DNA from: an uncultured virus (IMG/VR IMGVR_UViG_3300025133_000039)
Lineage: Duplodnaviria > Heunggongvirae > Uroviricota > Caudoviricetes
Virus record (IMG/VR): IMGVR_UViG_3300025133_000039
Reading direction: 5' to 3' (one strand)
DNA: 56,484 nucleotides
In this document: positions 1 through 50,683 of the stretch, piece after piece
Layout of the letters: every line of letters begins with the position of its first letter
Numbering within the stretch: the stretch's first letter is position 1
Notes under the pieces: model-generated
Seen by the model: only the letters and a program-made list of their open reading frames with translations
What the model was told of the DNA's origin: nothing
Database searches by the model: none
Translations under genes and position numbers: made by a program

Positions 1-3000
1 CATAAAAGTCTTCATAGCATCAGTGAATGCAGCAGTATTCATAAATACTGCCTGACCGCTTGCAGCTCTATAAGACCTAATCGCTCTCGCCTTCGAGGCG
101 GCGTTGCTACCGCCTCGAATATCATTAAGCATATCAAGACTAGAACCCTCAGGGAAGACAGAGCCAAGCATAGACCCTCTGGTGACGTTTGTCATCGCGC
201 CGGCAAAGAGGTCCGTCATGTTTCCGCGAAAGGCTCCTAGGCGGTCCTGGGCGACCCTGAATGCCTTTGAGCCAGCACCCTGCGCAGTGGAAATTCGGAG
301 TAGGTCATCATGAAGGGTTTTTACATTGCGAACGTACTGAGGAAAAATCTCAGTGGATGAACCATCTGCAGCACGAATAGAAGTCCCTTTCATGTTCTCT
401 AGAATGTCTCCACCTGGTAGGAATACAGAGGAGGATCCACCAAAAGCTTTCTCTGCGGCGGCTTGCACCTGCCTGTTCCCAGTGAAGTCGAGCGCAAGAC
501 CATCAGGGCTTTGCCTAAGAAGTGCTTCTACGGCTGCTTCTCCACCACCGCCAGCGGTGACAGACTTAGTGAACTTCTCCCAGTTCATCAGCGTTGGTCC
601 CTCAACGCCTAGCTTGTGTGCGGCTCTCACGTCACCAAGACTAGTGTGACCTATCATCGTTGACATAGTCTTAGATAGCCCGCTCGCGACAGACATGTCA
701 CGACCAATGTTCTCCTTGCGCGCCAGGAACGAAGTCATTACTTCGTTTACTTCATCTGCGTTCATACCCATAGTGTTTCGTAGGCGCTCTGCAAGGAACT
801 TGAATGAGCGAGGCTCTATAGAACCTTTCGCCGCACCGTATGTTAGGTACGGTGTCGGCGCCGCTGTAAGGGAGCCCATCCCTATAACGGCCTTAGACTC
901 AATGCCTTCCATAACGCCTGCTACCGCACCCTCCCCAAATGAACCTCGGATTGAGGCTTCGAGCCCAGAAGCGAATCCCTTTCCTGCGAATCTATTTCCT
1001 ACAGCGTGAGCACCGCCTAAGACGGAGCCAGCCATTTGTGGAGAAATGTCATTCATGTATACCGCTGCAGACAATACTTCGGTAGCAAAACTAGTCGCAC
1101 GCTGGAGCTTGAGGGCTTGTGTCAGAGGGGTCTTGGCTCCTCTAAGAGTCGCGGCATCTAAGCCTGCGCCTTTTGCGAACCAGGCATGTAGATCGTCAGC
1201 CCCACCGTTGGACCCCCAGGGCCCCAGGCCTAGCAGATCTAATCCACCAACCATCTGGTTAACAAGATTGTCAACAGACTTACGTAACATCGCGCCACTG
1301 GTGAAAAGTGTGCGATTCATATCCATCCCGGCTTCTCCAAATAGGGTCGCCGCAGTCATCCCACTACTACCTACAGGGATGCCTCTGAGCATCTTTCTAA
1401 TGGCGCTTTCGTCTGCTTCAAGAGTTGTTCCCTTGAATAGGTCACCGAAGAGCTTAGTTCTCCCAGTGGAGAACTCAGCCTTTCCATGGATATGAATCTT
1501 GTGCTGCGGGTTCCTTCCGCCAGTCACACTTCCAGAAGCCCTGAGGTGCATACCGGTCATATCGGGATGAGCCTTGATGAAAGCTTCCCTACCTTGAGGA
1601 CCCATTCCGAGCGCACCCTTATGACTTAGAATTTCAGCTCTAGTCAAATAGACACTCTCGCCCTTGCTTGTAGCATGGGTAATCCTGTTGAGTAGCTTAC
1701 GAGAAGAGAGATTGTGTTCTTTTGGGTTTAACACAGTCTTAACATATGGTGAACTGATGTTAGTCCTACCAGGCATTATTGCTTCGCCTTCGCCAATTCC
1801 GAAACGAGTACTAGTCTTCTTCTCAGACATGTCAAAGAAGATAGCCTTGTTCATAGAACCCGAGACCATATCGTTGGCTACAGACATGTTTCCACCGTAG
1901 ACCCTACGATCAGTTCGGCGCCCGACAGTAACGTTGGCTTGATTGTGGTGTGGGAAGATAAAGGTATCCCTTCCAAGCTGCTGGCCACGCCGAGCAGTTG
2001 TCAAAGAGGTTACCTGGGTTACTACTCCACCACCACGCATTGAGGAAGTATTGACACCCACGTTCATCGTGTCTCCGAACGGACCCCTGTTTACAGAAGG
2101 CTTCGATGACGGATGAAAGAATGAATCTTCTGGATGAAGGCTGGCGTCAGCAGCTAGCCAGGGCTGGAGATGGAAGGCCCTGTTTGAGTTAAGGGCTTCC
2201 ATTCCGACAACGGTCATGTGCTGGCTACGAGTCCTGTATGCATTCAGTAGGTTTCGACCGTACTCATCATTCTGTAGGGCTGCCCGAGGTAGAGCTTCGC
2301 TAAACGAGAGGGTGTGCTCACCGAACGTCCTGGAGTCCAGCATCCCTAAGTTGCCACCAACCTTGTCCATCCGTTGCTCAAAATGGCGGACAAAGAATTC
2401 TTCTGTTCCAACGATTGAAGCTGTACCCATCTTGGGAAACATAAAGCTGGACTGGACTACGTCCTTGGTCAGGCGAACCCTCTCGCCATGAGCAGCAAGC
2501 TGAAGCTCATCCATCTTTCCCGCGATTCCTGGTGCATCACCGAATAGCGGTGTTGCCGCATAAGGTGTAGCTAAAGCTTCTCCCGAGCGAATAATTTTAA
2601 GAGCCTCCCCGGGTCGATTCTTGCCTCCCCAAGAGGCAAGTTCCAGCGGAACAGAGGTAATGAACTTGTTGCCTTTTCGAATCTGAGCATAGTATGATAC
2701 TCCAACAGAGCCCTCTTTGACACTGACTAAAGAAACGCTACCACCCGCTCGCTGGGTGATATTGTTGATGCGCTCGTAGAAGTTTGTTGCAGCACTACCC
2801 AGTTCTGTAGCTGAAATTTTGTTATACCCCGCGCCACCCATGCCTTTCATACTTACAACAGGTGATGCGATCTGCGAACGAATGTCGAGAGCTGAATTCA
2901 ATGAACGATTGAACTCGCGTCGTACTGACTCAGTGCTTGTCTCTCGGATAGTGCTTACAGCCTGCTCAATAAGCTTCTCACTGTTACGCAAAATATCATC

Positions 3001-3447
3001 GGACTCCGATTCCAGCATCTGGCCAAGGGACGTGCGGATACCTTCGAGTGCAGGGTCATTTCTTTGGAGATCTAAGTTGTCGATAGTCTCAAGTACGGAT
3101 GTGATTACAGCTCGACGAGACTCAGCGCTCTCCGTGAGGATATCTTTAACGAACGTCCCTTTCGTTAGCTGCTCTCTAAAGCGCGCAGCCTGAGCATCCC
3201 GAGTGACAGCTTGCTCCTCGTGGATACGACGAAGGTTATCTCCAACAGAGATAGCCGTATTCTGGGCAGTGTTTGTCTTAAGATTGACAAGAGAGCTTGC
3301 ATCGTTGGACTTAAGCGCACGCCAACCGTGCGCCACGCCGAACATCACTGGAGCTACACCTAGTGCCTGCTTCAGAATGTTCGAGGTTGACTCGATAGGA
3401 GTTCTCGTAATGAGACTCGCCGGTCCGTTGGTGTTGTCGTTTGCCAT
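1..3447 (-). CDS. Giant virion-associated protein (>1149 aa, runs off window edge); possible virion RNA polymerase
   Basis: Open minus-strand frame from ATG at 3447 (TAATG overlap with the upstream stop) to position 1, starting MANDNTNGPASLITRTP. Absent from the ORF track because no stop is in the window. Lies in the structural module. RNAP-like hints (GEGEAIM, TKLFGDLFKG) are weak. Confidence 0.75.
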   Translation of the reverse strand, partial: MANDNTNGPASLITRTPIESTSNILKQALGVAPVMFGVAHGWRALKSNDASSLVNLKTNTAQNTAISVGDNLRRIHEEQAVTRDAQAARFREQLTKGTFVKDILTESAESRRAVITSVLETIDNLDLQRNDPALEGIRTSLGQMLESESDDILRNSEKLIEQAVSTIRETSTESVRREFNRSLNSALDIRSQIASPVVSMKGMGGAGYNKISATELGSAATNFYERINNITQRAGGSVSLVSVKEGSVGVSYYAQIRKGNKFITSVPLELASWGGKNRPGEALKIIRSGEALATPYAATPLFGDAPGIAGKMDELQLAAHGERVRLTKDVVQSSFMFPKMGTASIVGTEEFFVRHFEQRMDKVGGNLGMLDSRTFGEHTLSFSEALPRAALQNDEYGRNLLNAYRTRSQHMTVVGMEALNSNRAFHLQPWLAADASLHPEDSFFHPSSKPSVNRGPFGDTMNVGVNTSSMRGGGVVTQVTSLTTARRGQQLGRDTFIFPHHNQANVTVGRRTDRRVYGGNMSVANDMVSGSMNKAIFFDMSEKKTSTRFGIGEGEAIMPGRTNISSPYVKTVLNPKEHNLSSRKLLNRITHATSKGESVYLTRAEILSHKGALGMGPQGREAFIKAHPDMTGMHLRASGSVTGGRNPQHKIHIHGKAEFSTGRTKLFGDLFKGTTLEADESAIRKMLRGIPVGSSGMTAATLFGEAGMDMNRTLFTSGAMLRKSVDNLVNQMVGGLDLLGLGPWGSNGGADDLHAWFAKGAGLDAATLRGAKTPLTQALKLQRATSFATEVLSAAVYMNDISPQMAGSVLGGAHAVGNRFAGKGFASGLEASIRGSFGEGAVAGVMEGIESKAVIGMGSLTAAPTPYLTYGAAKGSIEPRSFKFLAERLRNTMGMNADEVNEVMTSFLARKENIGRDMSVASGLSKTMSTMIGHTSLGDVRAAHKLGVEGPTLMNWEKFTKSVTAGGGGEAAVEALLRQSPDGLALDFTGNRQVQAAAEKAFGGSSSVFLPGGDILENMKGTSIRAADGSSTEIFPQYVRNVKTLHDDLLRISTAQGAGSKAFRVAQDRLGAFRGNMTDLFAGAMTNVTRGSMLGSVFPEGSSLDMLNDIRGGSNAASKARAIRSYRAASGQAVFMNTAAFTDAMKTFM

Positions 3448-17806: not shown

Positions 17807-17842
17807 AGTAAAAGGGGTGAGGCCCCGAAAGACCTCACCCCT
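17807..17842 (-). terminator. Intrinsic terminator after the major capsid gene
   Basis: Minus strand reads AGGGGTGAGGTC-TTTCGG-GGCCTCACCCCT followed by TTT. Confidence 0.85.
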
Positions 17843-17868
17843 CAAAGTTTACCAGAGTTGCGCTTTGA

Positions 17869-19170: not shown

Positions 19171-19180
19171 TGTCGCCTCC

Positions 19181-20563: not shown

Positions 20564-20573
20564 GATAACTCCC

Positions 20574-34400: not shown

Positions 34401-34669
34401 TGGGCGATAATCACATCCCTCCAAGTAGAGTTCTTACCAATACCTGGGTGCCTCCTAGTAACGTCGTATCTGGTAGTCGCTAGCTGAAGGATATCCTGCT
34501 TCGGCCCACCCATACTTACTACTAGGTTAGGCTTGAAGAGGTACTCGTACGCCTTCTTGGTCTGTAGGTCGAAAATCGCCAACTCATGCAAACCACTACC
34601 ACGCTGAAGACCCATGGTCTCAGTATCGAGCAGAATTGCGTTTTGTAGCAGCGATAGACCTCGGTCCAT
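31436..34669 (-). CDS. Fusion of an N-terminal DEDDh-like 3'-5' exonuclease and a C-terminal SNase (thermonuclease) domain
   Basis: Exonuclease motifs LLDTETMGL, WIANAPFE, DIMD, HRAVED. SNase motifs DADTV, RLAGIDSPE, TYGR, VNFDLVKQGHA. Confidence 0.75.
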   Translation of the reverse strand: MDRGLSLLQNAILLDTETMGLQRGSGLHELAIFDLQTKKAYEYLFKPNLVVSMGGPKQDILQLATTRYDVTRRHPGIGKNSTWRDVIIAQLEMAKGEKPGALKNIKQAALIEQLSKIDPFQAHMLATGKSPAYGGGSEPVALRMQRIRGMGGNISDIITQRTSIQEALAPGSDMLQRMKGKTIWIANAPFESKQIGAQIAALPTELFEQVQAGTISKEDALAVQMRKSGLHEGLASFNPQTADNLYVTGKAVNAARASAQHSGDWTQVYEAYLRNTGAGDVRDIMDVLKAQQSYGRQLGLFSAPGREYGLSMDITARLFGSTEADPTLATKMFQGKEWHRAVEDTAATEAYVLRKSLESTEALRQVQLGGVAGKKLIQEARRGGGHLHQAMTFLKRLDVLAPELQSFNLTKRFDRMFQDFATQGFTAQHAGSGGTRAIQQMTPDGKLLEVPVNLAARETFKDVEQAAHYIINTGQYDAARVSGIWNQMTERLKEGGGLKMEGGRLKVGEATALQRISAGFREEHAGIGSLDKMIADLDGGVDEFFRRTSLPQLIDNLDASGGPRRTSRFQGMGLSKAMKGGVLAAASVTALGLAFGNRNDQRPDSHTVFRTQNYERWKEFQSNFGHLNDNDKGWRSGMNESGIAADRRKFNTDFGSPYRGPWTSNAVLMDQELLAEREKYMRSVYGVRHYDPVAGVFADISTLRAFNPLRHASSIPSGFVGEGIDASQYSGMKGKNLLGINLSSGNWKVTAEDADTVSVARRGVVGAIQGFFGMNKYSFRLAGIDSPEISHGARSWYSPQPHAHEAKTAMEAIIAGAGNLEIVYDPTQSTYGRGVGVLFADKRNVNFDLVKQGHAAALPYGSWKKSMVDYSVAVAHETKAREAGRGLHAEPFFQIYYGMSDKMDQRLTFNTIAQRARLSKNATLMSGASLMRQAQEQGYAGVNDLNAAVEIGSTLQRVGTYDDYRNRSTYRTHQAPHNNYMSEMLRDTSELMKTRGGRQQDKFKHRGGYGKLDKKLSLDTAGTTTSVYARRSLQAYKDYGADVAAARERKHRRSVQAAAQRQVNQSVFNSAIGHHRM

Positions 34670-37797: not shown

Positions 37798-38163
37798 GCC
37801 TCCTAAACTGCGAAGCAGTTTACATTTAGAAGTCAAGTCTAAGCTCGACATATAGGGAAAGTCAATTTTGATTATTTATATTTTGGGGTTTGGGCCGCGA
37901 TTCTTGTCAGAAGTCTTTGTCTCTAAGTAGGCGAAATTATTGTGAAAATATATTTTGCAGTACTAGGGTTGGTAGAGGATATATAGGAGATTTGACCAGG
38001 TTAGTGTTGTGTCATTTTGGGAGTACCGTTCATTCGAGCCCACCCCGGTTTAATCCAGCTTTTTTATTTCAACGGTGCGCTGAAGCACCATGGAGATAGA
38101 GACATGCAAGAGGCCTGTCCTCTCGGGACGAGGACATCAGCTAACTCCTAACCTCTAACAAGT

Positions 38164-38200
38164 AAAAAAGATGCACTGCCGCAAGGCAGTGCGCTTTTTT
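38164..38200. terminator. Bidirectional terminator-like hairpin
   Basis: AAAAAAG-ATGCACTGCC-GCAA-GGCAGTGCG-CTTTTTT. Confidence 0.75.
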
Positions 38201-38212
38201 ATTTCTGACGAT

Positions 38213-38925
38213 AGCGTGCGGTACCACCGTCACCTACACACCACCAGTGTGCAGGTAGCAGTAGGGCCGTAGTCGTACCTGTAGTCCCCGTGGGCTACCA
38301 TCCTATACGTATCGTGGGCTCGTACCCAGCATGAATCGGTATGCGTATAGGTTGGCTCTGATGTAGCTGTCGTGTAGCCCCATGTACCTAGTGCATGGGA
38401 TAGGTCACCACCTAGTAGGGTAGGGCATAGCAACCCCTGCCCCACACATGGTGAGTGTACTAACAGGGTGACACCTGGCTATGGGTACCCCTCTCATACC
38501 CGTTAAGAGAGGGGAGGTACGTGGTCCACCTAATAGAAGGACTGAGCATGTGGTGTGGGTAGCGCCCACCACGGCTCCTGTGTGTGCAACGCACACAGTC
38601 ACCGGGTACACCACAGGTAAGTGTACATACGTAGGTCTCACTGCGTAGCGACTAAGGTGTAGTAAGGGGTGTTCCACACACACAACCCCTGAAGGCCTAT
38701 GAGAATACCGGATCCTAGGGGGATACCTAGGGTCGGCGGGCCTGGAGGCCGAAACATCCAGGCAAGGGTCATAGCAGAGATACCGCACCTTCCGTGCGAT
38801 TGAAACCCGGTCTAACCAACCAAAGAATCTCTGTGGTCAGGAAGTAAGTTGGCCTGACACACCTAGCGCCCAGGGTTAAGGGCACCCAGCACCGTTCTGG
38901 TGCTACCCCGCACGATGAAGTGCAT
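38213..38925 (+). ncRNA. Candidate large (~700 nt) structured non-coding RNA or leader
   Basis: No credible ORF. More than 12 consecutive hairpins, many with G.T pairs that work as wobbles only on the + strand. Confidence 0.55.
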
Positions 38926-39907: not shown

Positions 39908-39917
39908 GCAAGGTGAT

Positions 39918-39960
39918 GGGGTGGCGGGTCTTCGGACCCGTCGCCCTGAGCTTTTTTCTT
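39918..39960 (+). terminator. Hairpin with cUUCGg loop plus T-tract
   Basis: GGGTGGCGGGTC-TTCG-GACCCGTCGCCC, then TGAGCTTTTTTCTTT. Confidence 0.75.
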
Positions 39961-40041
39961 TGATGATACCGAATGTACGGCGTTCTAACACACGACGTCA
40001 TACGTTCTCGAACCACCTGTGTGTTCGTTAGGAGCTAGAAG

Positions 40042-43000
40042 TTGGAAAACTTCAAGCGTCTGTTCGCCCTCGCGATCAGCCTGCTCGTCTTCGTCGCTAA
40101 GAAGCGACTGTATGGCGTGAAGGCTGCCACAAACCCGAAGGGAATCCTCACCTGGATCCCCTCTAACCTCAACAAGGATATGGGTCACGTCGGCCTCATC
40201 TCCGAAGCCAACCCGGACACCACCCGTTTCGAGATTATCGGAATGGAAGAGTCCATCACCCTGGTGCCGAATGAGGAATGGCACCCCTCTATCGTGACCA
40301 TGGCCTCCTGGAATGCCAAGGAGACCGGTCTGTTCAACTGGACGAAAGTTCAGTCTCTCTTCGATGAGGGAGACCTCATCGTGTCGAAGAAGGCGGAAGA
40401 AGTGGAAGACCACAACCGACGACTCGACGCTCGAAAGGAAGAGCGCGCTGTGAACCGGCGCACTCGCTCCCTGAGGGCTCGTGTCGAATCCTACATCACT
40501 AGCTTCCTGTTGGTGGTGTACAAGAAGATGATGCCTGAGGGTCCGAAGGTTCGTACTCGTTACACTCGGTTCGTGAGCCTGTCTGGGCTCCTGCACCGGA
40601 TGTTCCCGGATCTGCCGATGCCGAGTGTCCAGCTGAAGAACGACATGCCTGCCGATGAGCAGCGTGACGATCTGCCGGTTGCCATTCATCAGGCAGTTGC
40701 TCGTGATGGCCACATGCTGGTCAACCGCAAGCACATCGTCCACCGTGAGATCGTGCCCCTGTTGGCGAAGACCTTTCCGAAGGCCATCGACTTCAGGGCG
40801 TACGTCAAGGGTCTGTGCGCGCCTCTCGTGGCCAACGGTCACAGTCGCGTCGAGGTTCGGTTCGTTCACCTGCAGCATGGCAACAAGAGTGCTGGTGCTG
40901 ATGGGCGTGGCAACATCCACCCGAACCACCCGCTGTTCGCTCAGCTGGGCTACAGCGGACATGGTCCTCGTCCCTGCATCCAGATTCGTGGATGGAACCC
41001 TGACTTGGGATGCTTCATCAAGGGCATCCTGGTTCCGAGCGAGTCGGCAACGGACGCTGAAGGCAACCCCGAGATCCAGGTGGACTGGCTCCAGATCAAG
41101 GGGCTGCTGAAGGAGACGGCAAAGGCGAAGCACAAGCGTGCTGCCAAGAAGGTCTCTGATGGTCAGGCTCTCCACACGTTGGAGATGGCTGAGGCTGAGT
41201 TCGGTACCTACGAGTCGCAGGAAGCTCGTCGGTGGCTGGATGAGGGTCGGATGGTGCTGGACCTGGGTGTGACGAACGTCTTCGACAAGATCGTTCCTTA
41301 CTCCTGGTGCTTCGAAATCCTTGAGCGTGTAGAGGACACGCCTCGTACTCGTGAAATCATTCGCGAGTGGGTGGAAGAAGCGTTCCAGAAGCTGACCTTC
41401 GAGAAGCTGCTGGATTCGGCCTGTGCTCAGAGCGACAACGTTGCTTTCGCTCGCAAGCTGTGCAAGAAGCTCGGCATTGACCCGCTGAGCTTGCGCTTCA
41501 TCATGAAGCAGGTGCAGAAGGCGCTGGGGCAGCGGCTCTGGCTCATCAACCAGGGAGCTGGTAAGAAGGGTGATGGCTTCGTGTCCATTCTGGATGCAAC
41601 GCTGGAGCCTGGAACGTGTGTCCTGCCCTCCATCATGAAGGGTAAGCAGCGCGTGTACCTGCCGGGAGACACCATTGGAATCACTCGGTTCCCGATGGTC
41701 CTGCCTCAGGGTCTGCGTGTTGTGCGTGTGGTCGAGCCGTCCGAGCATCACCTGCTCAAGACGGAAGACGGCATGCAGCACGTCCCGAACGCCATCTGGC
41801 TCCACCCTGACGATCTGGAGATCGGCATGCAGGGTGACGACGATGGAGACGTGGTCATTGTGAACTCGGACCCTCGGGTTGTGGAGTTCTACAAGGAGCG
41901 TATCTCCATGCTGCCTGGTAAGCCGGACGCCATGTACTTGATTGAGCCTGTCAAGGGTGAGAACAAGGACAACCGGCTGGAAGAGCTGCACAGCCTCAGT
42001 GCTGAGGGTCGTGCGCTGGTGGCTAAGGATGGTCGTGGTCCGGTGGGTCTGAGTACCTTCTGGGGAGCGGCGTTCCTGGCGATTGGCAAGCGGGTTCACG
42101 GTCTGAGCATGGCTCACCTGACTCAGGAGTACATCGACTGTGCCAAGCGGATTCCGTTGTGGACGGACCCGCGTCAGGCATCCAATCCGAGCAACTACGA
42201 AGAAGTTCGGCCTGGAATCTGGAAGATCAAGCCCGGTAACACGGTGGAGATGGACTGGGCAGACGATGATGGCATGCTGAATCAGGACCTGGTGACCAAG
42301 TGGGTGCAGAAGCAGTTGGGCATGAAGCTCAACGACATTCTGTCCTGGCGTCAGCCGAATGGTGTGAAGAGCATCATTCTCGACTCGTGGGACATGCCCG
42401 AGGAGCCTGTTGGCAACCTCGTGCACTACTGCTCGCGGACCGCTTTCGAGGTGGCGCAGGGTTGGGCTGAAGAGCAGCTGGGTACTCAGGAGTCCGGTGA
42501 CATGTCGATGCTGGTCGTCGAAGCGCTGGAAGCAGCAGGTCAGGACATGAGTGGTGTTGAGCCGATGGCTCAGGAGCGCTACGTCAAGACCTTGCGAGAG
42601 AAGAGTGGTCTCAACGAGTTCGCCAAGTCCACGCTGTCTGTCATGAAGGCAGGCCTCGATGTGGAGGAGAAGGCTCGTCAGATGGATGCACTGCGTGCCA
42701 TCCTGGCTGGTCACCTCTCGATGCTGAGCATCGAAGAGTTGGCTACCATCTGGGTCACCGAGCTGTCGCAGCGGGATGAGAATGGCAACATTCCTGACCG
42801 GGCTGTCACTGCAGCGTTCCGGGCTGTGTGCTGGGAGGGTTCGCCCGTCCTGGTTGCGCTGAACCTGGAGCACAGCGATCGGTGTGAGTTCGCAGCTGAG
42901 AACATGGACGCCATCATGGCGTGGCTGCAGCACCGCGTTGATACCGGCAAGAACGGGAACTTGTTCCACGCGCTGGCTGAGACCATCTCGTCCAGCGTGA

Positions 43001-43179
43001 AGCACCAGGAAGTCACTGGTGTGGAGCTGCACAAGTGCAAGGACTGCACTACCCTCATGGAAGGCAAGGTCGTGTCCGAGGTCAGGAAGACCAAGGGCTC
43101 GGATGCTGAGAGTGTTGTGAAGGACATCATGTGGTCCGTGAACCGTGAACTCGGTTGGCCCACGAGCCGTCACAGCTAG
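40042..43179 (+). CDS. Single-subunit two-barrel RNA polymerase (YonO / cellular RdRP-like)
   Basis: Ordered motifs DGRG, QIR, KGIL, QIK, TRFP, catalytic GDDDGD (41836-41850) and QEYIDCAK. AGGAG RBS before TTG. 1045 aa. Confidence 0.85.
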   Translation: MENFKRLFALAISLLVFVAKKRLYGVKAATNPKGILTWIPSNLNKDMGHVGLISEANPDTTRFEIIGMEESITLVPNEEWHPSIVTMASWNAKETGLFNWTKVQSLFDEGDLIVSKKAEEVEDHNRRLDARKEERAVNRRTRSLRARVESYITSFLLVVYKKMMPEGPKVRTRYTRFVSLSGLLHRMFPDLPMPSVQLKNDMPADEQRDDLPVAIHQAVARDGHMLVNRKHIVHREIVPLLAKTFPKAIDFRAYVKGLCAPLVANGHSRVEVRFVHLQHGNKSAGADGRGNIHPNHPLFAQLGYSGHGPRPCIQIRGWNPDLGCFIKGILVPSESATDAEGNPEIQVDWLQIKGLLKETAKAKHKRAAKKVSDGQALHTLEMAEAEFGTYESQEARRWLDEGRMVLDLGVTNVFDKIVPYSWCFEILERVEDTPRTREIIREWVEEAFQKLTFEKLLDSACAQSDNVAFARKLCKKLGIDPLSLRFIMKQVQKALGQRLWLINQGAGKKGDGFVSILDATLEPGTCVLPSIMKGKQRVYLPGDTIGITRFPMVLPQGLRVVRVVEPSEHHLLKTEDGMQHVPNAIWLHPDDLEIGMQGDDDGDVVIVNSDPRVVEFYKERISMLPGKPDAMYLIEPVKGENKDNRLEELHSLSAEGRALVAKDGRGPVGLSTFWGAAFLAIGKRVHGLSMAHLTQEYIDCAKRIPLWTDPRQASNPSNYEEVRPGIWKIKPGNTVEMDWADDDGMLNQDLVTKWVQKQLGMKLNDILSWRQPNGVKSIILDSWDMPEEPVGNLVHYCSRTAFEVAQGWAEEQLGTQESGDMSMLVVEALEAAGQDMSGVEPMAQERYVKTLREKSGLNEFAKSTLSVMKAGLDVEEKARQMDALRAILAGHLSMLSIEELATIWVTELSQRDENGNIPDRAVTAAFRAVCWEGSPVLVALNLEHSDRCEFAAENMDAIMAWLQHRVDTGKNGNLFHALAETISSSVKHQEVTGVELHKCKDCTTLMEGKVVSEVRKTKGSDAESVVKDIMWSVNRELGWPTSRHS

Positions 43180-43184
43180 TCAGA

Positions 43185-43263
43185 AGTAAGGGAGGAGCTT
43201 CGGCTCCTCCCTTACTGCGGGAGGTGGCACCAATAGGGGTGCCACCTCAGGTCTTTTTTCTTT
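43185..43263 (+). terminator. Tandem hairpins plus T-tract after the RNAP gene
   Basis: AGTAAGGGAGGAGC-TTCG-GCTCCTCCCTTACT and GAGGTGGCACC...GGTGCCACCTC, then TCTTTTTTCTTT. Confidence 0.8.
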
Positions 43264-43294
43264 GATGGGTAATGACACCCGAAGGAGAGACGCC

Positions 43295-43696: not shown

Positions 43697-43790
43697 AGTC
43701 GTGAGTAGTGGGTGGGGAGGCTTCGGCCTCCCCGCCCTGGTCTTTTTTCTTTTACGGTGTGATATACAACCCGCACACCTAGGAGAGAAC

Positions 43791-44105: not shown

Positions 44106-44308
44106 ATTGAGATGGAGGGGAGGCCGAAAGGTCTCCCCTCCAGTACTCTTTTATTTGGTACTAACGACGACCTCCGCACACAGGCCTCTTCTCACGCCAC
44201 CATTCCTCCGCGACGACGACAGGCTCGCTTACGCTCGCTAGGTGGTGCTGGCATAGCCCAATCGGGCCTCGCCTTTTTCTTTCCCACTCTTTTCGTTTGG
44301 AGGTGTAC

Positions 44309-44449
44309 GTGAAGAAGCCTCGTAACTGGCATGCCGTCAATGCGAAGTTCCGGTCATCTGCTGGTCCTATGAAGAATAAGAGTCTTCGTGGGTCTGGTAA
44401 GGGGAAAGGGAAGGTTGCGCGCCACCCCAAGCACAAGTCAAAGTACTGA
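44309..44449 (+). CDS. 46-aa basic mini-protein, ArfA-like
   Basis: GGAGG RBS plus GTG. Sequence MKKPRNWHAVNAKFRSSAGPMKNKSLRGSGKGKGKVARHPKHKSKY; KGKG..R..KH resembles the ArfA C-terminal motif. Confidence 0.55.
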   Translation: MKKPRNWHAVNAKFRSSAGPMKNKSLRGSGKGKGKVARHPKHKSKY

Positions 44450-44514
44450 GGTTGAGGCATCCTAGTGGTGCCTCAACTAATCGAATAAACAAGCTCGATT
44501 ACTCTCGCTACGGG

Positions 44515-44707
44515 GTAGTGCAGTCCTCGGGCTCCCGAAATCCAGATAGGCCTGTCTGGATCGACATGGGGGTTTGGTTCTGAGACGGTGACTAGTACCC
44601 TGGGCAGGGAGCTGGTTTTGGGTCGGATGCATGCTGAGCCTCAGTGCCTTAGGGCTCTACCGCATGTCAAACGACCTTTTCCGAGGGGTTCGAATCCCCT
44701 CTGCACT
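44515..44707 (+). ncRNA. tRNA-like ncRNA (7-bp acceptor plus canonical T-arm) with a ~160-nt structured insert
   Basis: AGTGCAG (44517-23)/CTGCACT (44701-07) stacked on AGGGG-TTCGAAT-CCCCT (44684-700), with nested internal stems. Confidence 0.7.
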
Positions 44708-44742
44708 TTCTAATAAACAAGCTCGCTTATGCTCGCTGGATT

Positions 44743-44920
44743 GTGAGAGCTAGAGACAAACCTCTAACGATCAACGGGAGCGCGAGGCTGGAACCATACC
44801 AGTTGCATTCTGCAAGCACACCTCCTACGTGTGGAGTACCAGACACAGTGTGTGTCGTCTGGGGACGTAGGCCGCATGCTCGTTGGAGTTGAGAGTCATA
44901 CCTGTTTCAGGGTGGCTCTC
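44743..44920 (+). ncRNA. Candidate structured small RNA
   Basis: Between motif A and a terminator, with no RBS-led ORF. Stems CTCTAACGA/TCGTTGGAG, CCTACGT/ACGTAGG and CCAGAC/GTCTGG. Confidence 0.55.
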
Positions 44921-44960
44921 TTCTTTTTAATAAAGAACGCTCTCTTACGTTCGCTGGGCT

Positions 44961-45147
44961 GTGCAGGTCTTGATCAGCCTGCTCGCACGACAACAGTGAT
45001 GTACAGCTGGGTCGGGAGGACTACTCTTCCGATTCTGTCGAGCGGTTCATAGGTGGCGCCGAGGTGGCATCTCGGGCAGCAACTCAAGCATACATTCACG
45101 CCAATGGATGGGAGAAGAGAACCTCGACGGAGGTTCTCTTCTTTTTT
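44961..45147 (+). ncRNA. Candidate structured small RNA
   Basis: Between motif A and the terminator AGAAGAGAACCTC-GACG-GAGGTTCTCTTCT-TTTT. Starts GTGCAGG. Internal stems GCTCG/CGAGC, GTCGGGAG/CTTCCGAT and CCGAGG/TCTCGG. Confidence 0.5.
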
Positions 45148-45225
45148 AATAAAAAAGAACCACAAGCTCTCTTACGTTCGCTGGAGGGTGCTGGGACCAT
45201 GTCGGTCCCACACGGAGAGAATACC

Positions 45226-45504
45226 ATGATCGTTGTTACCCGCCACCCCGCGTACTTCCAGTACCTTGTCGAAGAGGGAGTCTGCAAGTCCGACGACGAG
45301 GTCGTCGAGCACGCCACGGTCGCGGAGATCGCAGGGCGTGACGTCGTCACCTCCGGGCTGCCGCTCCACCTTGCAGTGGAGTGCAAGACCCTCACAACGG
45401 TGGGGCTGTTCCTCCCCGCCGAGCTGCGTGGCAAGGAACTGGACATCGAGGACGTGCGCAAGTACGCCCAGCCCGCCGCAACCTACGTCGTGACCGGAGC
45501 CTGA
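45226..45504 (+). CDS. csx16: Csx16 (VVA1548)-like protein, putative cyclic oligoadenylate ring nuclease
   Basis: Signature VTRHP...VVEH...GLPLHLA...LPAELRGKEL..ED...Y.V. GGAG RBS, 92 aa. Confidence 0.75.
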   Translation: MIVVTRHPAYFQYLVEEGVCKSDDEVVEHATVAEIAGRDVVTSGLPLHLAVECKTLTTVGLFLPAELRGKELDIEDVRKYAQPAATYVVTGA

Positions 45505-45619
45505 AGCAGGGAGAAGAGAAGACGAGAGGCGGACCTTACGGGGTTCGCCTCTCTCTTTTAATAAGCTCGCTGACGCTCGCTAGGACTTGAGGCTTCGTCC
45601 TCACAACCAAGGAGGTAAC

Positions 45620-46180
45620 GTGGGAAACACGTTTGGAATGAACCCGTTCGTGCTGCGGCAGGTTGAGGCATCACGCTTCAGCCACTTCCGTGGCTCGCAC
45701 ATCTGCCTGCTGGACATGGTCGCGGAGTCGTTCGACCCTGAGACTCAGCAGGGATACCGACCTGGAGTCTACGAGGTTCCCGTGAACCCCAAGGGCTTCT
45801 TCTCCAACCAGGTGACGCTGGTCGAAGGAGATCTGCTGGTCGGCAAGTTCGAGGCTCGCCGTGAGGGTGAGGCTCCCAGGAAGACCGTTACGACGCTCGC
45901 ACGTCGCAAGTCGGTCGCTGGCTCCGCAACCATCATCATCTACGCCTCCGCTGTCTTGGCGGAAGATGGTGACAACTCGCTTCCTCCGCTGCCGGGGAAC
46001 TACGAGGTGGTGTCGATCAACTGTACGGCAGAAGAGCAGTTGCCCATCTGTCCGGAGGTGCTGATGCACAACCACTTCGGCAGTACTGGTGGCACGAGCA
46101 CGGGTCTGAGCGACTCGGAGTTCGTGGCGGTGCTCAAAGCATCGTTCCTAGCACACCGGGACAAGGCTAGCTGCGGCTAG
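45620..46180 (+). CDS. DUF3228-like protein
   Basis: AAGGAGG RBS plus GTG. Pattern F..RQ, GY.P, EARREGEAP, IY, YEVVSI, P.xP..LMHN...GGT. Confidence 0.6.
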   Translation: MGNTFGMNPFVLRQVEASRFSHFRGSHICLLDMVAESFDPETQQGYRPGVYEVPVNPKGFFSNQVTLVEGDLLVGKFEARREGEAPRKTVTTLARRKSVAGSATIIIYASAVLAEDGDNSLPPLPGNYEVVSINCTAEEQLPICPEVLMHNHFGSTGGTSTGLSDSEFVAVLKASFLAHRDKASCG

Positions 46181-46255
46181 GAGAACTAGGGAGACCACTC
46201 TTCGGGGTGGTCTCCCTAGAACTAATAAATAATGCTTGCTGACGCTCGCTACGCT

Positions 46256-46338
46256 GTGCAGGATTCTACGTTGCACGCGCGCGCACTGGAAGCAATCCGG
46301 CCTTAGGATGGGGTTCGAATCCCTCGTGAGTCCTGCAC
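46256..46338 (+). ncRNA. Degenerate tRNA-like RNA with an elongated acceptor stem
   Basis: GTGCAGGATTC(T)ACG/CGTGAGTCCTGCAC closing stem, GGGG-TTCGAAT-CCCT T-arm and CTGG-AAGCAAT-CCGG anticodon-like arm. Confidence 0.65.
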
Positions 46339-46357
46339 TCTTCAACCAGGAGACACC

Positions 46358-46534
46358 ATGTTCGCACGACTGAAGCGGCTCTTCACCAAGAAGACCACGC
46401 CTCCGCACTACGAGATCTTCACCACCACGTACATCGATGGTGAGTGCTGGATCTGCCAGCGCTCCACTGGGACTCCGATTCGTCGGCTGTCCTCCTTCTT
46501 CAACGACTCCCACAACCAAAGGATGGGACGATGA
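46358..46534 (+). CDS. Small hypothetical protein (58 aa)
   Basis: AGGAG RBS, MFARLKRLFTKK..., ATGA overlap with the next gene. Confidence 0.6.
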   Translation: MFARLKRLFTKKTTPPHYEIFTTTYIDGECWICQRSTGTPIRRLSSFFNDSHNQRMGR

Positions 46535-46992
46535 ACGCATACCAACGACGAAAGGCCCGACGCGCGGCGCTCCGCATGGTGGCCAACTTCCAGACGAAGC
46601 TGTTCCGGGTGCCCGGTACCGCTGCGCACGCCGAGCCGCTGAAGTGCCGAGGCTACAAGTTCTCGGTGCAGGCCTCGGACTACCACTACTCCGAGCCGCG
46701 AGACTGGTGTGCCTACACCGACTACACCGAGATGGAGGTCGCGATCTTCGACTCGGACGGAGACTGGTGTGTCCTGGCCGACGCCGAGGAGCACGAGTTC
46801 GGCACCCGCTTCGAGAAGTGGGACGGAGCGACCACCAGCGTCACACCGTACATGGAAGTCGAGAACATCCAGGCACTGCTGAACGCAGTCGCCCTCGGTG
46901 AGATTCGGCCCATCAAGCTCTCGGACTACCTCCACATGGTGAAGGCTGACCGCGAGATCGAGGCGTGCATCAACGGCATGGACGTGGTCTAG
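46531..46992 (+). CDS. Hypothetical protein
   Basis: ATG at 46531. FSVQAS.YHYSEPR...EVA motif common in phage hypotheticals; biased codons. Confidence 0.7.
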   Translation: MNAYQRRKARRAALRMVANFQTKLFRVPGTAAHAEPLKCRGYKFSVQASDYHYSEPRDWCAYTDYTEMEVAIFDSDGDWCVLADAEEHEFGTRFEKWDGATTSVTPYMEVENIQALLNAVALGEIRPIKLSDYLHMVKADREIEACINGMDVV

Positions 46993-47010
46993 TTAGCAAT
47001 CACGCTAACC

Positions 47011-47088
47011 ATGTACTCCTTTTCTACCGCATTGGAGTGCATTAATAAAGACGGTAGTGGGTCAGCTGTGCCCATCGTACTAACAGCT
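47011..47088 (+). ncRNA. Two tandem H-type pseudoknots in a 3' UTR
   Basis: PK1: ATGTACTCC/GGAGTGCAT plus CTACCG/CGGTAG. PK2: GTGGGT/GCCCAT plus AGCTGT/ACAGCT. Confidence 0.55.
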
Positions 47089-47187
47089 TGTAGGGAGTGG
47101 CTTCGGCCGCTCCCTACTTAATTATAAACAAGCTCTCTTACGCTCGCTGGATCGTGGTAATTCCGAACAACTCTCACCGAGGAAACC

Positions 47188-47358
47188 ATGACCGACTACG
47201 AACCGAACTTCGTCATCCTGACGTACGAGGACCTGTTGCTGCTCGAACTCATCTACACCATCCGTCAGGAGATCGCACGCCAGCGTCGAATCGCTGTCCT
47301 GCTGGATCAGCTGGCCGACACCATGGAAGAGCTGTACGAGCTGGGCTTCCCCTACTAG
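47188..47358 (+). CDS. Small acidic helical protein (56 aa)
   Basis: GAGGA RBS. MTDYEPNFVILTYEDLLLLELIYTIRQEIARQRRIAVLLDQLADTMEELYELGFPY. Occupies its own cassette. Confidence 0.65.
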   Translation: MTDYEPNFVILTYEDLLLLELIYTIRQEIARQRRIAVLLDQLADTMEELYELGFPY

Positions 47359-47436
47359 TCCCTCCGCTGAGCCTGCCCTGTCTGGGTGGGCTCAGCTGGG
47401 TGCAATAAATAAGTGCTCGCTTACACTCGCTACGTG

Positions 47437-47714
47437 GTGGTGAGATGAACAGCTCCCTCTGCAGGCAATGACTCGCTTTCCGTCCTGTGAGTGTCACGCC
47501 TTCATGGAGCCACGTTCACCCGTCGTGTCGAAGACTCTGTCTACAGCTGAACCAAAAAGAACACCGAGGACTCGCGTCCTGTTCGAAGTAGGTACCCATA
47601 AAAGCAAATAAGGCCCGTACTCCCCCTCCGAAACCGGATCGGAACACGAGTAGGACCACAGCGTAATCCGCGCAATGCTGGGATCAAGGTTGTAGGTAGA
47701 GTCTTCGATATGGC
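47437..47714 (+). ncRNA. Candidate structured RNA with a 26-bp G.U-rich closing helix
   Basis: 47522-47547 pairs with 47689-47714 at all 26 positions. Upstream domain TGAAC..GCTCC/GGAGC..GTTCA. Confidence 0.7.
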
Positions 47715-47741
47715 TCAACCTTCTCAATAATAAGGAACAAG

Positions 47742-48023
47742 ATGGAAATCAACTTCAGTCACTTCATCGATTCCCGAGCCAACGCGAAGAAGGCCTTGGC
47801 GGCACTGATTCACCTGTGCAAGGCGTTCGATGTTGATGATCGCGACATCCACGCGATCATTCGTTCGATTGCAGGAACGCAGAACGCAGAGATTCCAGTC
47901 ATCGCCGTCTACGAACTGGGGAATACGATCCCGACCATGAAGAAGATCCAGGTCATCAAGCTGATCCGCATGCAGACCGGCTGTGGACTCCGCGAAGCCA
48001 AGATCGCTGCGGAAAGCATGTAG
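47742..48023 (+). CDS. Ribosomal protein bL12 (L7/L12) C-terminal domain-containing protein
   Basis: KKIQVIKLIRMQTGCGLREAK matches the KI.VIK.VR..TG.GLKEAK signature. AAGGA RBS. Confidence 0.75.
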   Translation: MEINFSHFIDSRANAKKALAALIHLCKAFDVDDRDIHAIIRSIAGTQNAEIPVIAVYELGNTIPTMKKIQVIKLIRMQTGCGLREAKIAAESM

Positions 48024-48181
48024 TCGCATAACACTCGCGTACGCTCGTGACGTGGTGGTGGTTTCTCCTGCGGGGGTGTCTGGCTTCGGCTGGGCACCCT
48101 CGCTTCTTGCCAATAAGACTCGCTTACGCTCGTTGCGGGGTGATGACCTGGCGATGATGCCTTGTCTCAGCAGGAGGGCTC

Positions 48182-48460
48182 ATGCCCAACAAGGAAGACA
48201 AGTCCCTTGCTCCGATGCCGTGGTGGGCCAAGCTCATCGTCGGTGCGACCGCTGTTGGTCTGATCGTGAAGTTCACGCCGATCCAGCAGTGCCTGTACCT
48301 GTTCCTCATGATCGTGATGGTCCCGATGGCCCTGTTCGCAGGAATCGGTCTCATCTCCCAGGGCACCTACGAGGCGCTCCAGGGGAAGATCGCGGAAGCT
48401 CAGGCTGCGTTGCAGGAGCGAGTTGACGAGAAGATGCGGGAACGACGAGCCTCGGCTTAG
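48182..48460 (+). CDS. Small membrane protein with coiled-coil tail
   Basis: AGGAGG RBS and two hydrophobic segments. Confidence 0.7.
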   Translation: MPNKEDKSLAPMPWWAKLIVGATAVGLIVKFTPIQQCLYLFLMIVMVPMALFAGIGLISQGTYEALQGKIAEAQAALQERVDEKMRERRASA

Positions 48461-48514
48461 TCCAACCGTCCGTACTGTAAGCAAGAAGTAAAACCGTACT
48501 AAGGAGTACACCCA

Positions 48515-48958
48515 GTGAAGATTTCCCTTCAGGCCGTCACCGACACGGTCACCGCTGCCGTTCCCGGCACGTTCAAGTTCGCGATGCACGGTGGCAACTG
48601 TCACGTCACCTTCGGCTCCCTCCGGGGTTCCGATGACGAGGCCAAGTGCCGTGCCCTCACCCAGGCTGCCGACGCCCTCCGCGCCGCTGGTCTGGAGCCC
48701 ACGGTCCGCCTGTCCACCCGGTTCAAGGGTGAGGACAACTGGTCCCCGATGCCTCACATCTGGGTCAACCAGCCGTCCGCGCAGGAGCAGGCCACCTCGA
48801 ACCTGGAGCAGCAGGTCGCGACCCTGACGACTCAGTTCTCGCAGCTGATGTCCGCCCTCCAGGCGGGTCAGGCTCAGGCGGCTCCGGCTCCGTCGGGTCC
48901 CGAGGTCGTTCGCAAGCCCTCGAAGGAGTCCGTCAGCACTCCCGACTCGCCCATCTAG
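48515..48958 (+). CDS. Hypothetical protein
   Basis: AAGGAG RBS plus GTG and strongly biased codons. Confidence 0.75.
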   Translation: MKISLQAVTDTVTAAVPGTFKFAMHGGNCHVTFGSLRGSDDEAKCRALTQAADALRAAGLEPTVRLSTRFKGEDNWSPMPHIWVNQPSAQEQATSNLEQQVATLTTQFSQLMSALQAGQAQAAPAPSGPEVVRKPSKESVSTPDSPI

Positions 48959-49043
48959 GGCAAGAAGCTGACTTCCTGAAGTATGGGGGTGGGTCCACAG
49001 TTCCGTGGGCTCACCCCTGACGCTTCATAACTAAGGAGAAACG

Positions 49044-49244
49044 ATGGCTCGTCGTCACGTTTCGTACCGTGTGTACTCGGATCATCCGAAGCACAAGCAG
49101 ACCTCCGTGGATGTGTTCATTCCCGAAGGTCAAGATCCCCTCGTGGCTGGCTTCCGAGCGAGTCACGACCTGCGTCAGGTTCCGATGACGTTCACCCGAG
49201 GCAAGGCCACGTTCAACACGCGGTTCAGCTACCGGAGGAACTGA
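49044..49244 (+). CDS. Hypothetical protein
   Basis: AAGGAG RBS, 66 aa. Confidence 0.7.
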   Translation: MARRHVSYRVYSDHPKHKQTSVDVFIPEGQDPLVAGFRASHDLRQVPMTFTRGKATFNTRFSYRRN

Positions 49245-49537
49245 TGGGATACAACGCAAACCTGGCAGACCCCAAGGCCTGCCTGATCGTTCGGAAGTTC
49301 ATGCGTCCTGTGAAGGGCCGCAAGAACAAGGAACTCGTGCTCCGCGCCTTCATCGGCAAAGAGACCGAGGCCGGCAACTACACCGGCTCGTCGTACCGCT
49401 CGTTTCCGATTCTGGACCGACGCGGCAACTACGACGCAACCAAGTGTGCTGACCGCAACGCCTGTTGGGTCGGACCACGCCTGATTCGTCTCCGTGATGG
49501 AGCCGACATCACCCCGGAGGAAGAGAATGCTTCGTAG
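49244..49537 (+). CDS. Hypothetical protein
   Basis: TGATG coupling and GGAGG RBS. Confidence 0.7.
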   Translation: MGYNANLADPKACLIVRKFMRPVKGRKNKELVLRAFIGKETEAGNYTGSSYRSFPILDRRGNYDATKCADRNACWVGPRLIRLRDGADITPEEENAS

Positions 49538-49745
49538 CCTTCTTCGCATCGCAACTGCCCAACGTGAGGCTTTCACGTCCGCTCTCGTCAACGAGGCTGA
49601 CGTGCTCGGTCCCAAGCTGGTGGAGACCGTCAAGATCTGCGTCCGCTTCAACAAGCAGGAGGAGGGTCGCCGCGAGCGAATCGTCGCCGCCTACACCTCC
49701 TACCTCAAGCAGATCGACGAAGTCCTGGAGGAAGACGATGGCTGA
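49527..49745 (+). CDS. Hypothetical protein
   Basis: GGAGG RBS before ATG at 49527. Confidence 0.65.
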   Translation: MLRSLLRIATAQREAFTSALVNEADVLGPKLVETVKICVRFNKQEEGRRERIVAAYTSYLKQIDEVLEEDDG

Positions 49746-49989
49746 GACGACCAACGACCAGTCGAAGGGGATCAAGTTCGTCTTCCGCAGGGTGAAGGGC
49801 CAGGAGTACTCCCTGCCCTACTCCTACGTGGAGGACCGCTTCGTCGAGAACTCGGCCAGCAACCGCGAAGCCGCCGAGAACGCCAAGGCCTCTGGCTTCA
49901 CCTACGAGACCATGCAGAACAGGTACGGACGTGACAGCGCCAAGCTCCAGGCGGAGCTGAAGCGCAAGCAGCCGGCGATGTTCCTGTAA
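49738..49989 (+). CDS. Hypothetical protein
   Basis: GGAGG RBS before ATG at 49738, followed by a terminator. Confidence 0.7.
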   Translation: MAETTNDQSKGIKFVFRRVKGQEYSLPYSYVEDRFVENSASNREAAENAKASGFTYETMQNRYGRDSAKLQAELKRKQPAMFL

Positions 49990-49995
49990 AGAACC

Positions 49996-50029
49996 ACGTG
50001 AGGATCCCTTCGGGGGTCCTCACGTTTTT
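49996..50029 (+). terminator. Intrinsic terminator
   Basis: ACGTGAGGATCCC-TTCG-GGGGTCCTCACGT-TTTT. Confidence 0.85.
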
Positions 50030-50095
50030 AATAAAGAATTAGGATGACGCACTCGCTTACGCTCGTGCGTTGGTGCTAGGTGACCGTTGTCCTCA

Positions 50096-50188
50096 GCCCC
50101 CGAAGGGGGCAATAAGGTTTAAGGTACGACGCTTCCCCCGAAGGGGGAGACTCTAAAAACATCACCACCATTAAGCCCCGTAAGGGGC
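50096..50188 (+). repeat. Three near-identical mini-hairpins (CCCCC-GAA-GGGGG x2, GCCCC-GTAA-GGGGC)
   Basis: At 50096-50110, 50134-50148 and 50175-50188. Confidence 0.8.
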
Positions 50189-50212
50189 GTAACGTAAGTT
50201 AAGGAGAACAAG

Positions 50213-50404
50213 ATGCCTGTAGGTTGGAACAACCTGGTAGCGAAGCAGAATCATCAAGTGAAGTTCACCTTCACTGACGGGAGCGAAGCGACCGTCACCA
50301 TGGTCAACGACCTGGACGAGGACGAACTCACCGAAAAGCTCAATGCTTGGAGGACTCAAATGGGTGTCGAAGGACTAAAGTACGAGATTCTTACCTCGAA
50401 CTAA
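50213..50404 (+). CDS. Hypothetical protein (63 aa)
   Basis: AAGGAG RBS. Confidence 0.65.
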   Translation: MPVGWNNLVAKQNHQVKFTFTDGSEATVTMVNDLDEDELTEKLNAWRTQMGVEGLKYEILTSN

Positions 50405-50583
50405 GGTTCGTAGGAGAATAGGCACAGAAAAGAACGATTCTAATTCTTGGGGTACACATCCCCATGGAGAAGAGTGTTTAAGAAAATAGAATGGTGTTTT
50501 AGAGGTTTGGCAAAACCCTGAGATATCAGCTATTTACTCCGCGAATCACTCCTGTTTTAGTTCAATCTAGCCACATATCGGAA

Positions 50584-50658
50584 ATAACTCTTCATTTAGG
50601 CCAGATTCGGTTCAGTAATGGACTCGATCTGAAGATAACTCTTCATTTAGGCCAGATT
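50584..50658. repeat. Perfect 24-bp direct repeat ATAACTCTTCATTTAGGCCAGATT x2
   Basis: At 50584-50607 and 50635-50658, within an AT-rich non-coding stretch. Confidence 0.9.
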
Positions 50659-50683
50659 TCTCTTCGCTTACGCTCAGTGCGTG

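Follow-up and report, generated by a model that had tools for sequence, protein, structure and literature searches.

The polymerase gene and its protein family

Here we present an analysis of a 56,484-nucleotide (nt) stretch of DNA from an uncultured tailed virus (IMG/VR record IMGVR_UViG_3300025133_000039; Caudoviricetes), referred to below as the window, and of a predicted RNA polymerase (RNAP) that it encodes, P0001. The P0001 open reading frame (ORF) occupies 40042..43179 on the plus strand and encodes 1045 residues from a TTG start, with AGGAG 7 nt 5' of the start. Two sets of repeated signals flank the gene: motif B, found before it and its upstream neighbours, and motif A, an array of thirteen short inverted repeats that follows it (44223..50677, plus strand). 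A cut ORF at the left edge of the window (1..3447, minus strand) is a candidate for a second, virion-borne polymerase, P0164. Neither motif B nor this candidate had figured in the initial annotation of the window.

That annotation had described P0001 as a polymerase of the YonO and cellular RNA-dependent RNA polymerase (RdRP) type from six short motifs, and all six were found where it had placed them and in the same order: DGRG (residue 287, nt 40900), QIR (residue 314, nt 40981), KGIL (residue 327, nt 41020), TRFP (residue 548, nt 41683), GDDDGD (residue 598, nt 41833-41850, with aspartates at 41836, 41842 and 41848) and QEYIDCAK (residue 695, nt 42124). Since DGRG recurs at residue 663 and KGIL at residue 33, such four-letter words are by themselves little proof, and conservation was therefore tested. 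A word-based search yielded 17 proteins, and a profile made from 16 of them retrieved 218 clusters (50% identity) at E<=0.001, of which 161 reached E<=1e-30. Residues were counted over 111 mostly full-length aligned members, chosen from 160 relatives. K327, G328, P551, D599, D601, D603, Q695, D699, K702 and C948 are present in all 111, R549 and K353 in 110, D287 and Q314 in 109, R316 in 76 and the R of DGRG in just two. The proposed motif order is thus upheld by a near-invariant catalytic set, which is kept across relatives at 20-37% identity.

Motif order and fold match assign D287-G288, Q314-x-R316, K327-G328 and K353 (40900..41100) to the NTP-binding (nucleoside triphosphate-binding) side of a first barrel. 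R549-x-P551 and the catalytic loop G-D599-D-D601-G-D603 (41686..41850) belong to a second; the DxDxD triad that follows R-x-P is in place, these residues being kept in 110-111 of the 111 members. The helix motif Q695-xxx-D699-xx-K702 (42124..42147; 111/111) aligned to PDB entry 8F72 in a profile match. The middle aspartate of the loop, D600, is found in 103 of the 111, and DDDGD in 122 of the 160 relatives, the others having S, A, T or N in mid-loop except for 23, mostly fragments, that lack such a loop. The DDDGD variant, previously regarded as a peculiarity of this gene, marks the whole family, and is unusual only relative to described enzymes: ten supplement files of a survey of these (PMC10770324) contain no match to it. 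Nor is the very early position of the gene exceptional, as had been supposed, since it is the rule at the loci of P0001 relatives and holds likewise for gp64 of phage P23-45 and gp99 of phage 0305phi8-36.

Sequence comparison placed P0001 only loosely. The Pfam RdRP family PF05183 matched with E 0.0023 and 17.1 bits, below the curated cut-off of 23.8 bits, and 7 of 16 relatives matched it at E<=0.1 (best 5e-12). Searches of the PDB (with the single sequence and with a 16-row profile), PHROGs and NCBIfam gave no useful match, and tblastn found none in 50,697 phage records; a 111-row profile gave weak matches to 8F72 (E 0.03), 8F5M and QDE-1. An AlphaFold2 model built from a 68-row alignment was of good quality, with a mean predicted local distance difference test score (pLDDT) of 83.7 and a predicted template modelling score (pTM) of 0.82, low only at residues 1-114 and 378-386. 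Foldseek placed QDE-1 first (E 1e-13), then RDR2, P74-26 gp62 (E 4e-7) and P23-45 gp64 (E 8e-7), with the crAss phi14:2 RNAP (E 2e-4) and P23-45 gp96 further down. VIA-align gave Z 18.9 to RDR2 (493 residues aligned, root-mean-square deviation (rmsd) 4.7), 17.3 to QDE-1 (595 aligned, rmsd 4.7), 16.2 to gp64 (408 aligned, rmsd 3.7), 12.5 to gp96 and about 11 to cellular RNAP subunits. The aligned span in P0001 runs from about residue 147 to 942 for QDE-1/RDR2, and from 178 to 811 for gp64.

On this modelling, P0001 belongs with the single-chain polymerases of the QDE-1/YonO/gp64 kind that carry two double-psi barrels, as the initial annotation had it; the two barrels are deduced from the fold matches together with strand clusters at residues 267-421 and 509-608 of the model. 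The invariant residues of the clade, given in PMC2919709 as including QDE-1 R738, K743, R962 and P964 with four aspartates, provide a further comparison. All eight clade-invariant positions, matched through motif order, are present in P0001 (D287, R316, K327, R549, P551, D599, D601 and D603). We take D709 to be one of the invariant aspartates of QDE-1. P0001 is very probably an active RNA polymerase; the modelled fold cannot separate DNA from RNA templates.

Beyond the polymerase core lies a helical, family-specific extension with C948, H988 and C999-xx-C1002 (42883..43047), probably a zinc site. The cysteine at 948 is invariant, as stated above, and H988 is kept in 107 and C999 and C1002 in 109 each of the 111 relatives; the VIA alignments to QDE-1 and RDR2 stop at residues 937-947, before this tail. 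At the other end, the N-terminus (40060-40100) is a hydrophobic helix followed by KKR, a possible membrane tether, and shared among 16 aligned proteins with P0002 only. Three family members, P0072, P0088 and P0097, have 1470-2566 residues and are possible fusions or inteins. Relatives of P0001 also occur on three contigs of metagenome-assembled genomes from different phyla, where they may be binning passengers.

Signals before and after the gene

Motif B consists of a terminator hairpin, a T-rich tract, A-Y-G-G, a small 5' hairpin and a ribosome site. Its pattern was derived from the window together with an initial 15 loci, and then counted over 30 loci. Of the 53 collected (viral, 15; metagenome, 35; genome, 3), visual inspection removed 24, chiefly duplicates or short contigs, leaving 29 and the window. 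The 243 kb upstream of the polymerase gene gave 117 matches and the 196 kb downstream gave 10; the gene itself held none, and the opposite strand had 7. Upstream copies are present in 25 of the 30 loci. The window holds copies at 38063, 39955, 43257 and 43746, all on the plus strand. The first (38063..38075) lies at the divergence of leftward late and rightward early genes, as it does in the close relative L036. The second, in the unit of terminator hairpin and T-rich motif ending in ATGA at 39917..39966, lies 87 nt before the polymerase start and is the proposed virion-RNAP promoter of the P0001 gene. The terminator of the polymerase gene is joined to the third (43221..43268), and another terminator to the last (43710..43757). 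The P0001 gene thus sits inside an array of AT-rich terminator-promoter units, as in the P23-45 gp64 system. In P23-45 the virion-RNAP promoter, TTATTCCTTTA, immediately follows a terminator and is itself closely followed by the start (PMC10770324 supplement), and it drives the gene of the non-virion RNAP (PMC10770324). Motif B resembles this mapped promoter, and the architecture at 39917..39966 is that of P23-45 TTS1/TSS2.

The motif A array begins after the last motif B. At up to two mismatches, CTCGCTTACGCTCG occurs 13 times, always on the plus strand and nowhere else in the window, at 44224, 44494, 44722, 44940, 45167, 45566, 46235, 47133, 47416, 48034, 48119, 50052 and 50663; four copies stand directly behind a full terminator, and L036 has 11 copies. 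As a fixed 14-mer, motif A was rejected as a family signal, being present in 2-3 copies in 3 of 15 loci. Its hairpin form generalises: an oriented, fixed C-TNAC-G core within free, covarying stems. A census over 27 loci (the 30 less L038, L062 and L065) found 115 such hairpins downstream of the polymerase gene (0.60/kb), 9 around its start (0.56/kb), 9 further upstream (0.045/kb) and 2 inside it (0.024/kb). With the window set aside, the downstream DNA of the other 26 loci has 110 hairpins on the RNAP strand as opposed to 6 on the other, and shuffled sequences gave a mean of 0.5 and a maximum of 2; counted over the whole of two complete genomes, the RNAP strand carries 12 of 12 and 13 of 15. 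Eighteen of the 27 loci have TNAC sites, and these loci fall in both main clades of a quick tree, which has long branches and served solely for this placement.

The composition of the stems points to DNA. With one filter for both classes, G-T pairs number 0 in 131 TNAC stems and 28 in 113 TTCG terminator stems. On the template strand motif A reads CGAG-C-GTAA-G-CGAG, and the 13 window copies have there a stem with tandem G-A in 12 cases and G-A/A-A in one, their loops being GTAA (9), GTCA (2), ATAA and GTAC; in all 13, the non-standard pairs on this strand are purine-purine or T-G. These features are those of a CGAG block and GNNA tetraloop known from DNA (PMC10085684). Because the stems lack RNA-type G-U pairs and the template strand offers GNNA loops with tandem G-A, the motif A hairpin is predicted to fold best as template-strand DNA. 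One variant locus, L012, has TTGC loops and still presents GNNA on the template strand.

We consider it likely that motif A is a promoter, and also probable, at moderate confidence, that P0001 is its reader, as the initial annotation had proposed; what speaks for the latter is that strand-biased, covarying hairpins follow the gene. Several observations weigh against this reading. The main exception among TNAC stems, tandem TC/TC, was admitted by the very filter used to count G-T pairs. Nine of the 27 loci have no TNAC site, six of them with more than 7 kb of downstream DNA and three with less than 2 kb, and the top-strand loops of L003, L009 and L055 begin with G, contrary to a strict template-strand rule. 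In L006, L011, L049, L051 and L058 many hairpins come immediately behind a gene, have a pyrimidine tail and might act as terminators. Finally, the distance from loop to GG peaks at 16 (28 sites) with a spread of 8-19, and is 9-12 in the window.

The principal alternative, which we judge unlikely, is that P0001 is a DNA-dependent RNAP whose promoter is plain nearby sequence, a TTCT-N-GG box or ACTCCGC, while the hairpins act as RNA-level stop, processing or 5'-stabilising signals, or as single-strand priming sites. Many TNAC hairpins do stand behind stop codons with pyrimidine tails, and a box follows them, in which +11 is T in 60% and +16/+17 are G in about 50%; similarly, the P23-45 gp64 promoters end in TT-Y-GG, with no constant hairpin by eye. 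ACTCCGC occurs near the polymerase start in 13 of the 30 loci, including L005, L009, L037, L055, L057, L058 and L071, often 20-50 nt before a hairpin. It also lies downstream in three loci without TNAC, L003, L013 and L014, taking the place of TNAC in the last two. In the window, TCCTCCGC precedes the first motif A (about 44203). As a promoter in its own right ACTCCGC was rejected, there being no matching site at the window's polymerase start. An RNA-level role for the hairpins is disfavoured by the absence of G-U pairs in 131 stems and by the tandem UC/UC, which would weaken an RNA stem. Furthermore, motif A in the window comes after a complete UUCG-type terminator and before genes, and Rfam at E<=1 found no ribozyme or other family, two sub-threshold matches apart.

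Some other repeats share this territory. Downstream of the RNAP in L001, L005, L009 and L071 there are CCCCC-GA(T/C)A-GGGGG hairpins, a separate element; the downstream census contains 27 loops of the GATA or GACA type. In L003, repeats with 69-nt spacing lie at 17062-21993, downstream of the polymerase homologue.

A candidate virion polymerase and the proposed cascade

The left part of the window carries, on the minus strand, genes for terminase, portal, major head and tail sheath proteins. Its closest cultured portals and terminases, at 23-37% identity, are those of 0305phi8-36, WH1, Edson, KLEB27-3, MTATph1 and ME3, and its tail gene order agrees with that of 0305phi8-36. Portal, terminase and tail gene order together indicate that the virus is, by sequence, a contractile-tailed phage of the same lineage as 0305phi8-36.

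In this tail module the cut ORF at 1..3447 occupies the slot of the 0305phi8-36 tape measure, gp146, and supplies the N-terminal 1149 residues of P0164. Locus L027, 99.96% identical over 7393 nt, extends the frame to 1732 residues, and the part beyond the window carries R-Y-P and DFDSD. A homologue is found in each of five complete relatives, two of these from outside the profile (E 2e-222 and 2e-112), and R-x-P and the three aspartates are invariant in all eight full-length homologues, at 22-28% identity. The 114 residues from R-x-P to the aspartates fall just outside the 20-100 filter of the PMC10770324 survey. Motifs and position make P0164 a likely virion RNAP. Against it stand the structural results: the model is poor (pLDDT 62, pTM 0.34), Foldseek has no match at E<=0.001, its best, at E 0.04, being to vaccinia RNAP chain B, VIA comparisons are at background level (best Z 7.1, to dynein), matches in the ESM Atlas are all under 0.9, profile comparison links it to P0001 nowhere, and gp146 of 0305phi8-36 has no DxD[GAS]D loop. 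Many of the weaker Foldseek rows are RNAP second-largest subunits. No match to P0164 was found in five cultured relatives or in 50,697 phage records.

If the tail protein is not a polymerase, P0001 itself might read motif B, or both motifs, with the host RNAP making the first transcripts. This we hold to be somewhat less probable again than the plain-sequence alternative. It has on its side that motif B occurs more widely than motif A, in 25 of 30 loci, and that the fold of the tail protein is as unconfirmed as just described. It is opposed by the invariance of the P0164 catalytic residues and the RNAP character of its weak Foldseek rows, by the fact that the corresponding signal in P23-45 belongs to the virion enzyme (PMC10770324), and by a chance-level number of sigma-70-like sites in the window, 6 found where 3.8 +/- 2.0 were expected.

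We put forward a two-polymerase cascade, suggested by gene context: motif B before the gene, a probable virion RNAP in the tail module, and motif A after the gene. A virion-borne RNAP from the tape-measure slot would enter the cell with the DNA and start at motif B, where the T-tail of a terminator would double as the next promoter, giving one-gene units that include the P0001 gene. P0001, to which we assign a non-virion role with good confidence, would be made just after infection, intact, with both barrels on one chain. It would then start at motif A, where the template strand of the short inverted repeat may fold into a stable DNA hairpin with a c-GTNA-g loop and a Watson-Crick or tandem sheared G-A stem, transcription beginning a short way downstream. 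Transcription by P0001 would yield the small RNAs and the mRNAs of the early genes, to which several relatives would add the mRNA of the polymerase itself. For reading the hairpin, the C-terminal Cys-His-Cys-Cys domain would be a candidate, a role that we regard as doubtful. The observed part of this scheme comprises the fold class, the ORF, the conserved catalytic set, the position, and the strand bias and covariation of both motifs. We narrowly favour the view that P0001 is a non-virion, DNA-dependent RNAP reading hairpin promoters like those of phage N4. The full proposal is more tentative: a large uncultured family (the 218 clusters) of contractile-tailed phages with a private two-step cascade, in which a sigma-less, RNAi-polymerase-like DDDGD RNAP with a zinc domain binds an extruded template-strand mini-hairpin (GNNA loop, optional tandem G-A stem).

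A variant in which P0001 only elongates, and a second phage or host protein, SSB-like (single-strand-binding-like) or a small pre-early product, chooses promoters by binding the hairpin, appears improbable. N4 transcription needs gyrase and host SSB (PMC4496689), the loop differs between lineages while the zinc domain is kept, and unassigned genes flank P0001 under motif B control; no conserved partner gene turned up, though without a systematic search for one.

The initial annotation had also raised the idea that P0001 copies small RNAs with tRNA-like ends. Two such units lie behind motif A copies on the plus strand: a non-coding unit with GTGCAG...CTGCAC ends and a T-arm word (44512..44706), and a second with a long closing stem (46256..46338), whose z is only -1.4; the T-arm-like words are at 44687 and 46312. 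ARAGORN found no tRNA in the window and Rfam names neither unit; their predicted folding does not surpass that of shuffled sequences (z -0.8 to -1.5), and they have no 3' CCA. The T-arm word was found downstream in 6 of 26 related loci, in some as part of ordinary tRNA genes. The closest folds being the RdRPs QDE-1 and RDR2, with the weak Pfam RdRP match, does count against our preferred reading, and QDE-1 has both activities; nevertheless, YonO is strictly DNA-dependent (PMC5467207), gp64 is DNA-dependent (PMC10770324), and the conserved partners of the P0001 gene are DNA signals, so that an RNA-dependent enzyme copying the adjacent RNAs is very improbable and the copying idea was not sustained. 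The units are probably products of motif A promoters and P0001, not templates.

Related systems and neighbouring features

Both the enzyme class and the two-RNAP plan are already known (PMC10770324, PMC2919709, PMC7824862). The nearest parallel is P23-45 gp64 and P74-26 gp62 (PDB 8F72, 8F5M; PMC10770324), which share the single-chain two-barrel fold with P0001 at 13% identity. In P23-45, likewise, the gene stands among pre-early units, each headed by a terminator joined to an AT-rich signal; a second motif, rich in GC, is found downstream, and there is a virion RNAP fused to the tape measure, gp96, whose counterpart in the window is a candidate only. P0001 differs from gp64 (about 617 residues) in its length of 1045 residues, its DDDGD loop and its C-terminal Cys-His-Cys-Cys domain, and the profile match is at E 0.03; also, the second motif of the window is a covarying hairpin, and the window phage is contractile-tailed.

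Phage 0305phi8-36 places gp99 (ABS83659.1; PMC2147016), an RdRP-like RNAP gene, beside the start of its early arm and terminal repeat. The alignment of gp99 to the P0001 family covers about 70 columns at the catalytic barrel only (E 4e-5), gp99 being the one match among five cultured relatives; its loop is DTDGD where P0001 has DDDGD, and no motif B array precedes its gene. For gp99, Hardies et al. suggested a set of 14 promoters of 21 bp specific to the phage (PMC2147016). In 190000-218948 of this genome, flipped to the gp99 strand (L079), we found ten oriented T-TCGC-A hairpins with covarying stems downstream of gp99 and one 105 nt upstream, which need not be the 14 proposed sites. This phage offers a cultured test case for hairpin promoters.

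SPbeta YonO, a single-chain two-barrel phage enzyme of about 100 kDa with the aspartate triad, resembles P0001 by description and is the proven DNA-dependent example (PMC5467207); it transcribes late genes, whereas the P0001 gene heads the early arm. QDE-1 and RDR2 (PF05183) are the best structural matches (Z 17-19, 490-610 residues aligned) with the same motif order, but at 12-14% identity, and P0001 stands in a phage context with DNA signals. Within these searches, P0001 is the closest phage fold to the eukaryotic RNAi polymerases.

The promoter design has its precedent in the early promoters of the N4 virion RNAP (PMC4496689), which are short inverted repeats with stems free in sequence as long as they pair and with a fixed template-strand purine loop containing a sheared G-A pair. 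The N4 enzyme is T7-like and virion-borne, and its 3-base loop is centred at -11 (PMC4496689); motif A has a 4-base loop, a stem that may hold tandem G-A, a two-barrel enzyme and a start position that is predicted only. Hairpin promoters have so far been shown only for that enzyme, which is unrelated to P0001. Our literature search, which covered mainly freely accessible text, returned no paper that dealt with the P0001 family or described a two-barrel RNAP with a hairpin promoter.

The proposal bears on promoter selection without sigma by single-chain two-barrel RNAPs; for gp64, motifs are all that has been put forward. The P0001 family offers, besides the enzyme, a candidate promoter of 14-16 nt for which 18 loci supply natural compensatory variants, and the second enzyme-promoter pair, the virion RNAP candidate and motif B, would be a built-in control. 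If the proposal is correct, hairpin promoters arose in both RNAP superfamilies, with N4-style structure-based recognition in the cellular-type one, a possible link to the handling of single-stranded templates by QDE-1/RDR enzymes, and an RNAP and promoter would become available as a compact orthogonal pair.

Several further features of the window were recorded. Just 5' of the first motif B, at about 38037-38060 and also in L001, L005, L007 and L036, is a GAGCC(C/T)ACC..GG..TAA element, which lies at the late/early divergence and is possibly a genome-end or first-promoter signal. Long stretches without convincing genes lie at 38200-38800 and 50400-51250; the former, which L036 conserves, might represent an origin or a non-coding RNA. 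Behind the first motif A there is a small basic ORF (about 44294-44449, plus strand; KKPRNWHAVNAK...) whose DNA is strongly conserved in L036, and at 45226-45504 (plus strand) a 92-residue early gene that matches Csx16 below threshold (TIGR02620, E 1e-5). Near the terminase gene, 31436-34669 (minus strand) encodes a protein of 1077 residues that contains a staphylococcal-nuclease domain (E 5e-11) and whose N-terminal part weakly matches exonucleases. Of the virus records, the nearest is G001, which spans the head-gene region only.

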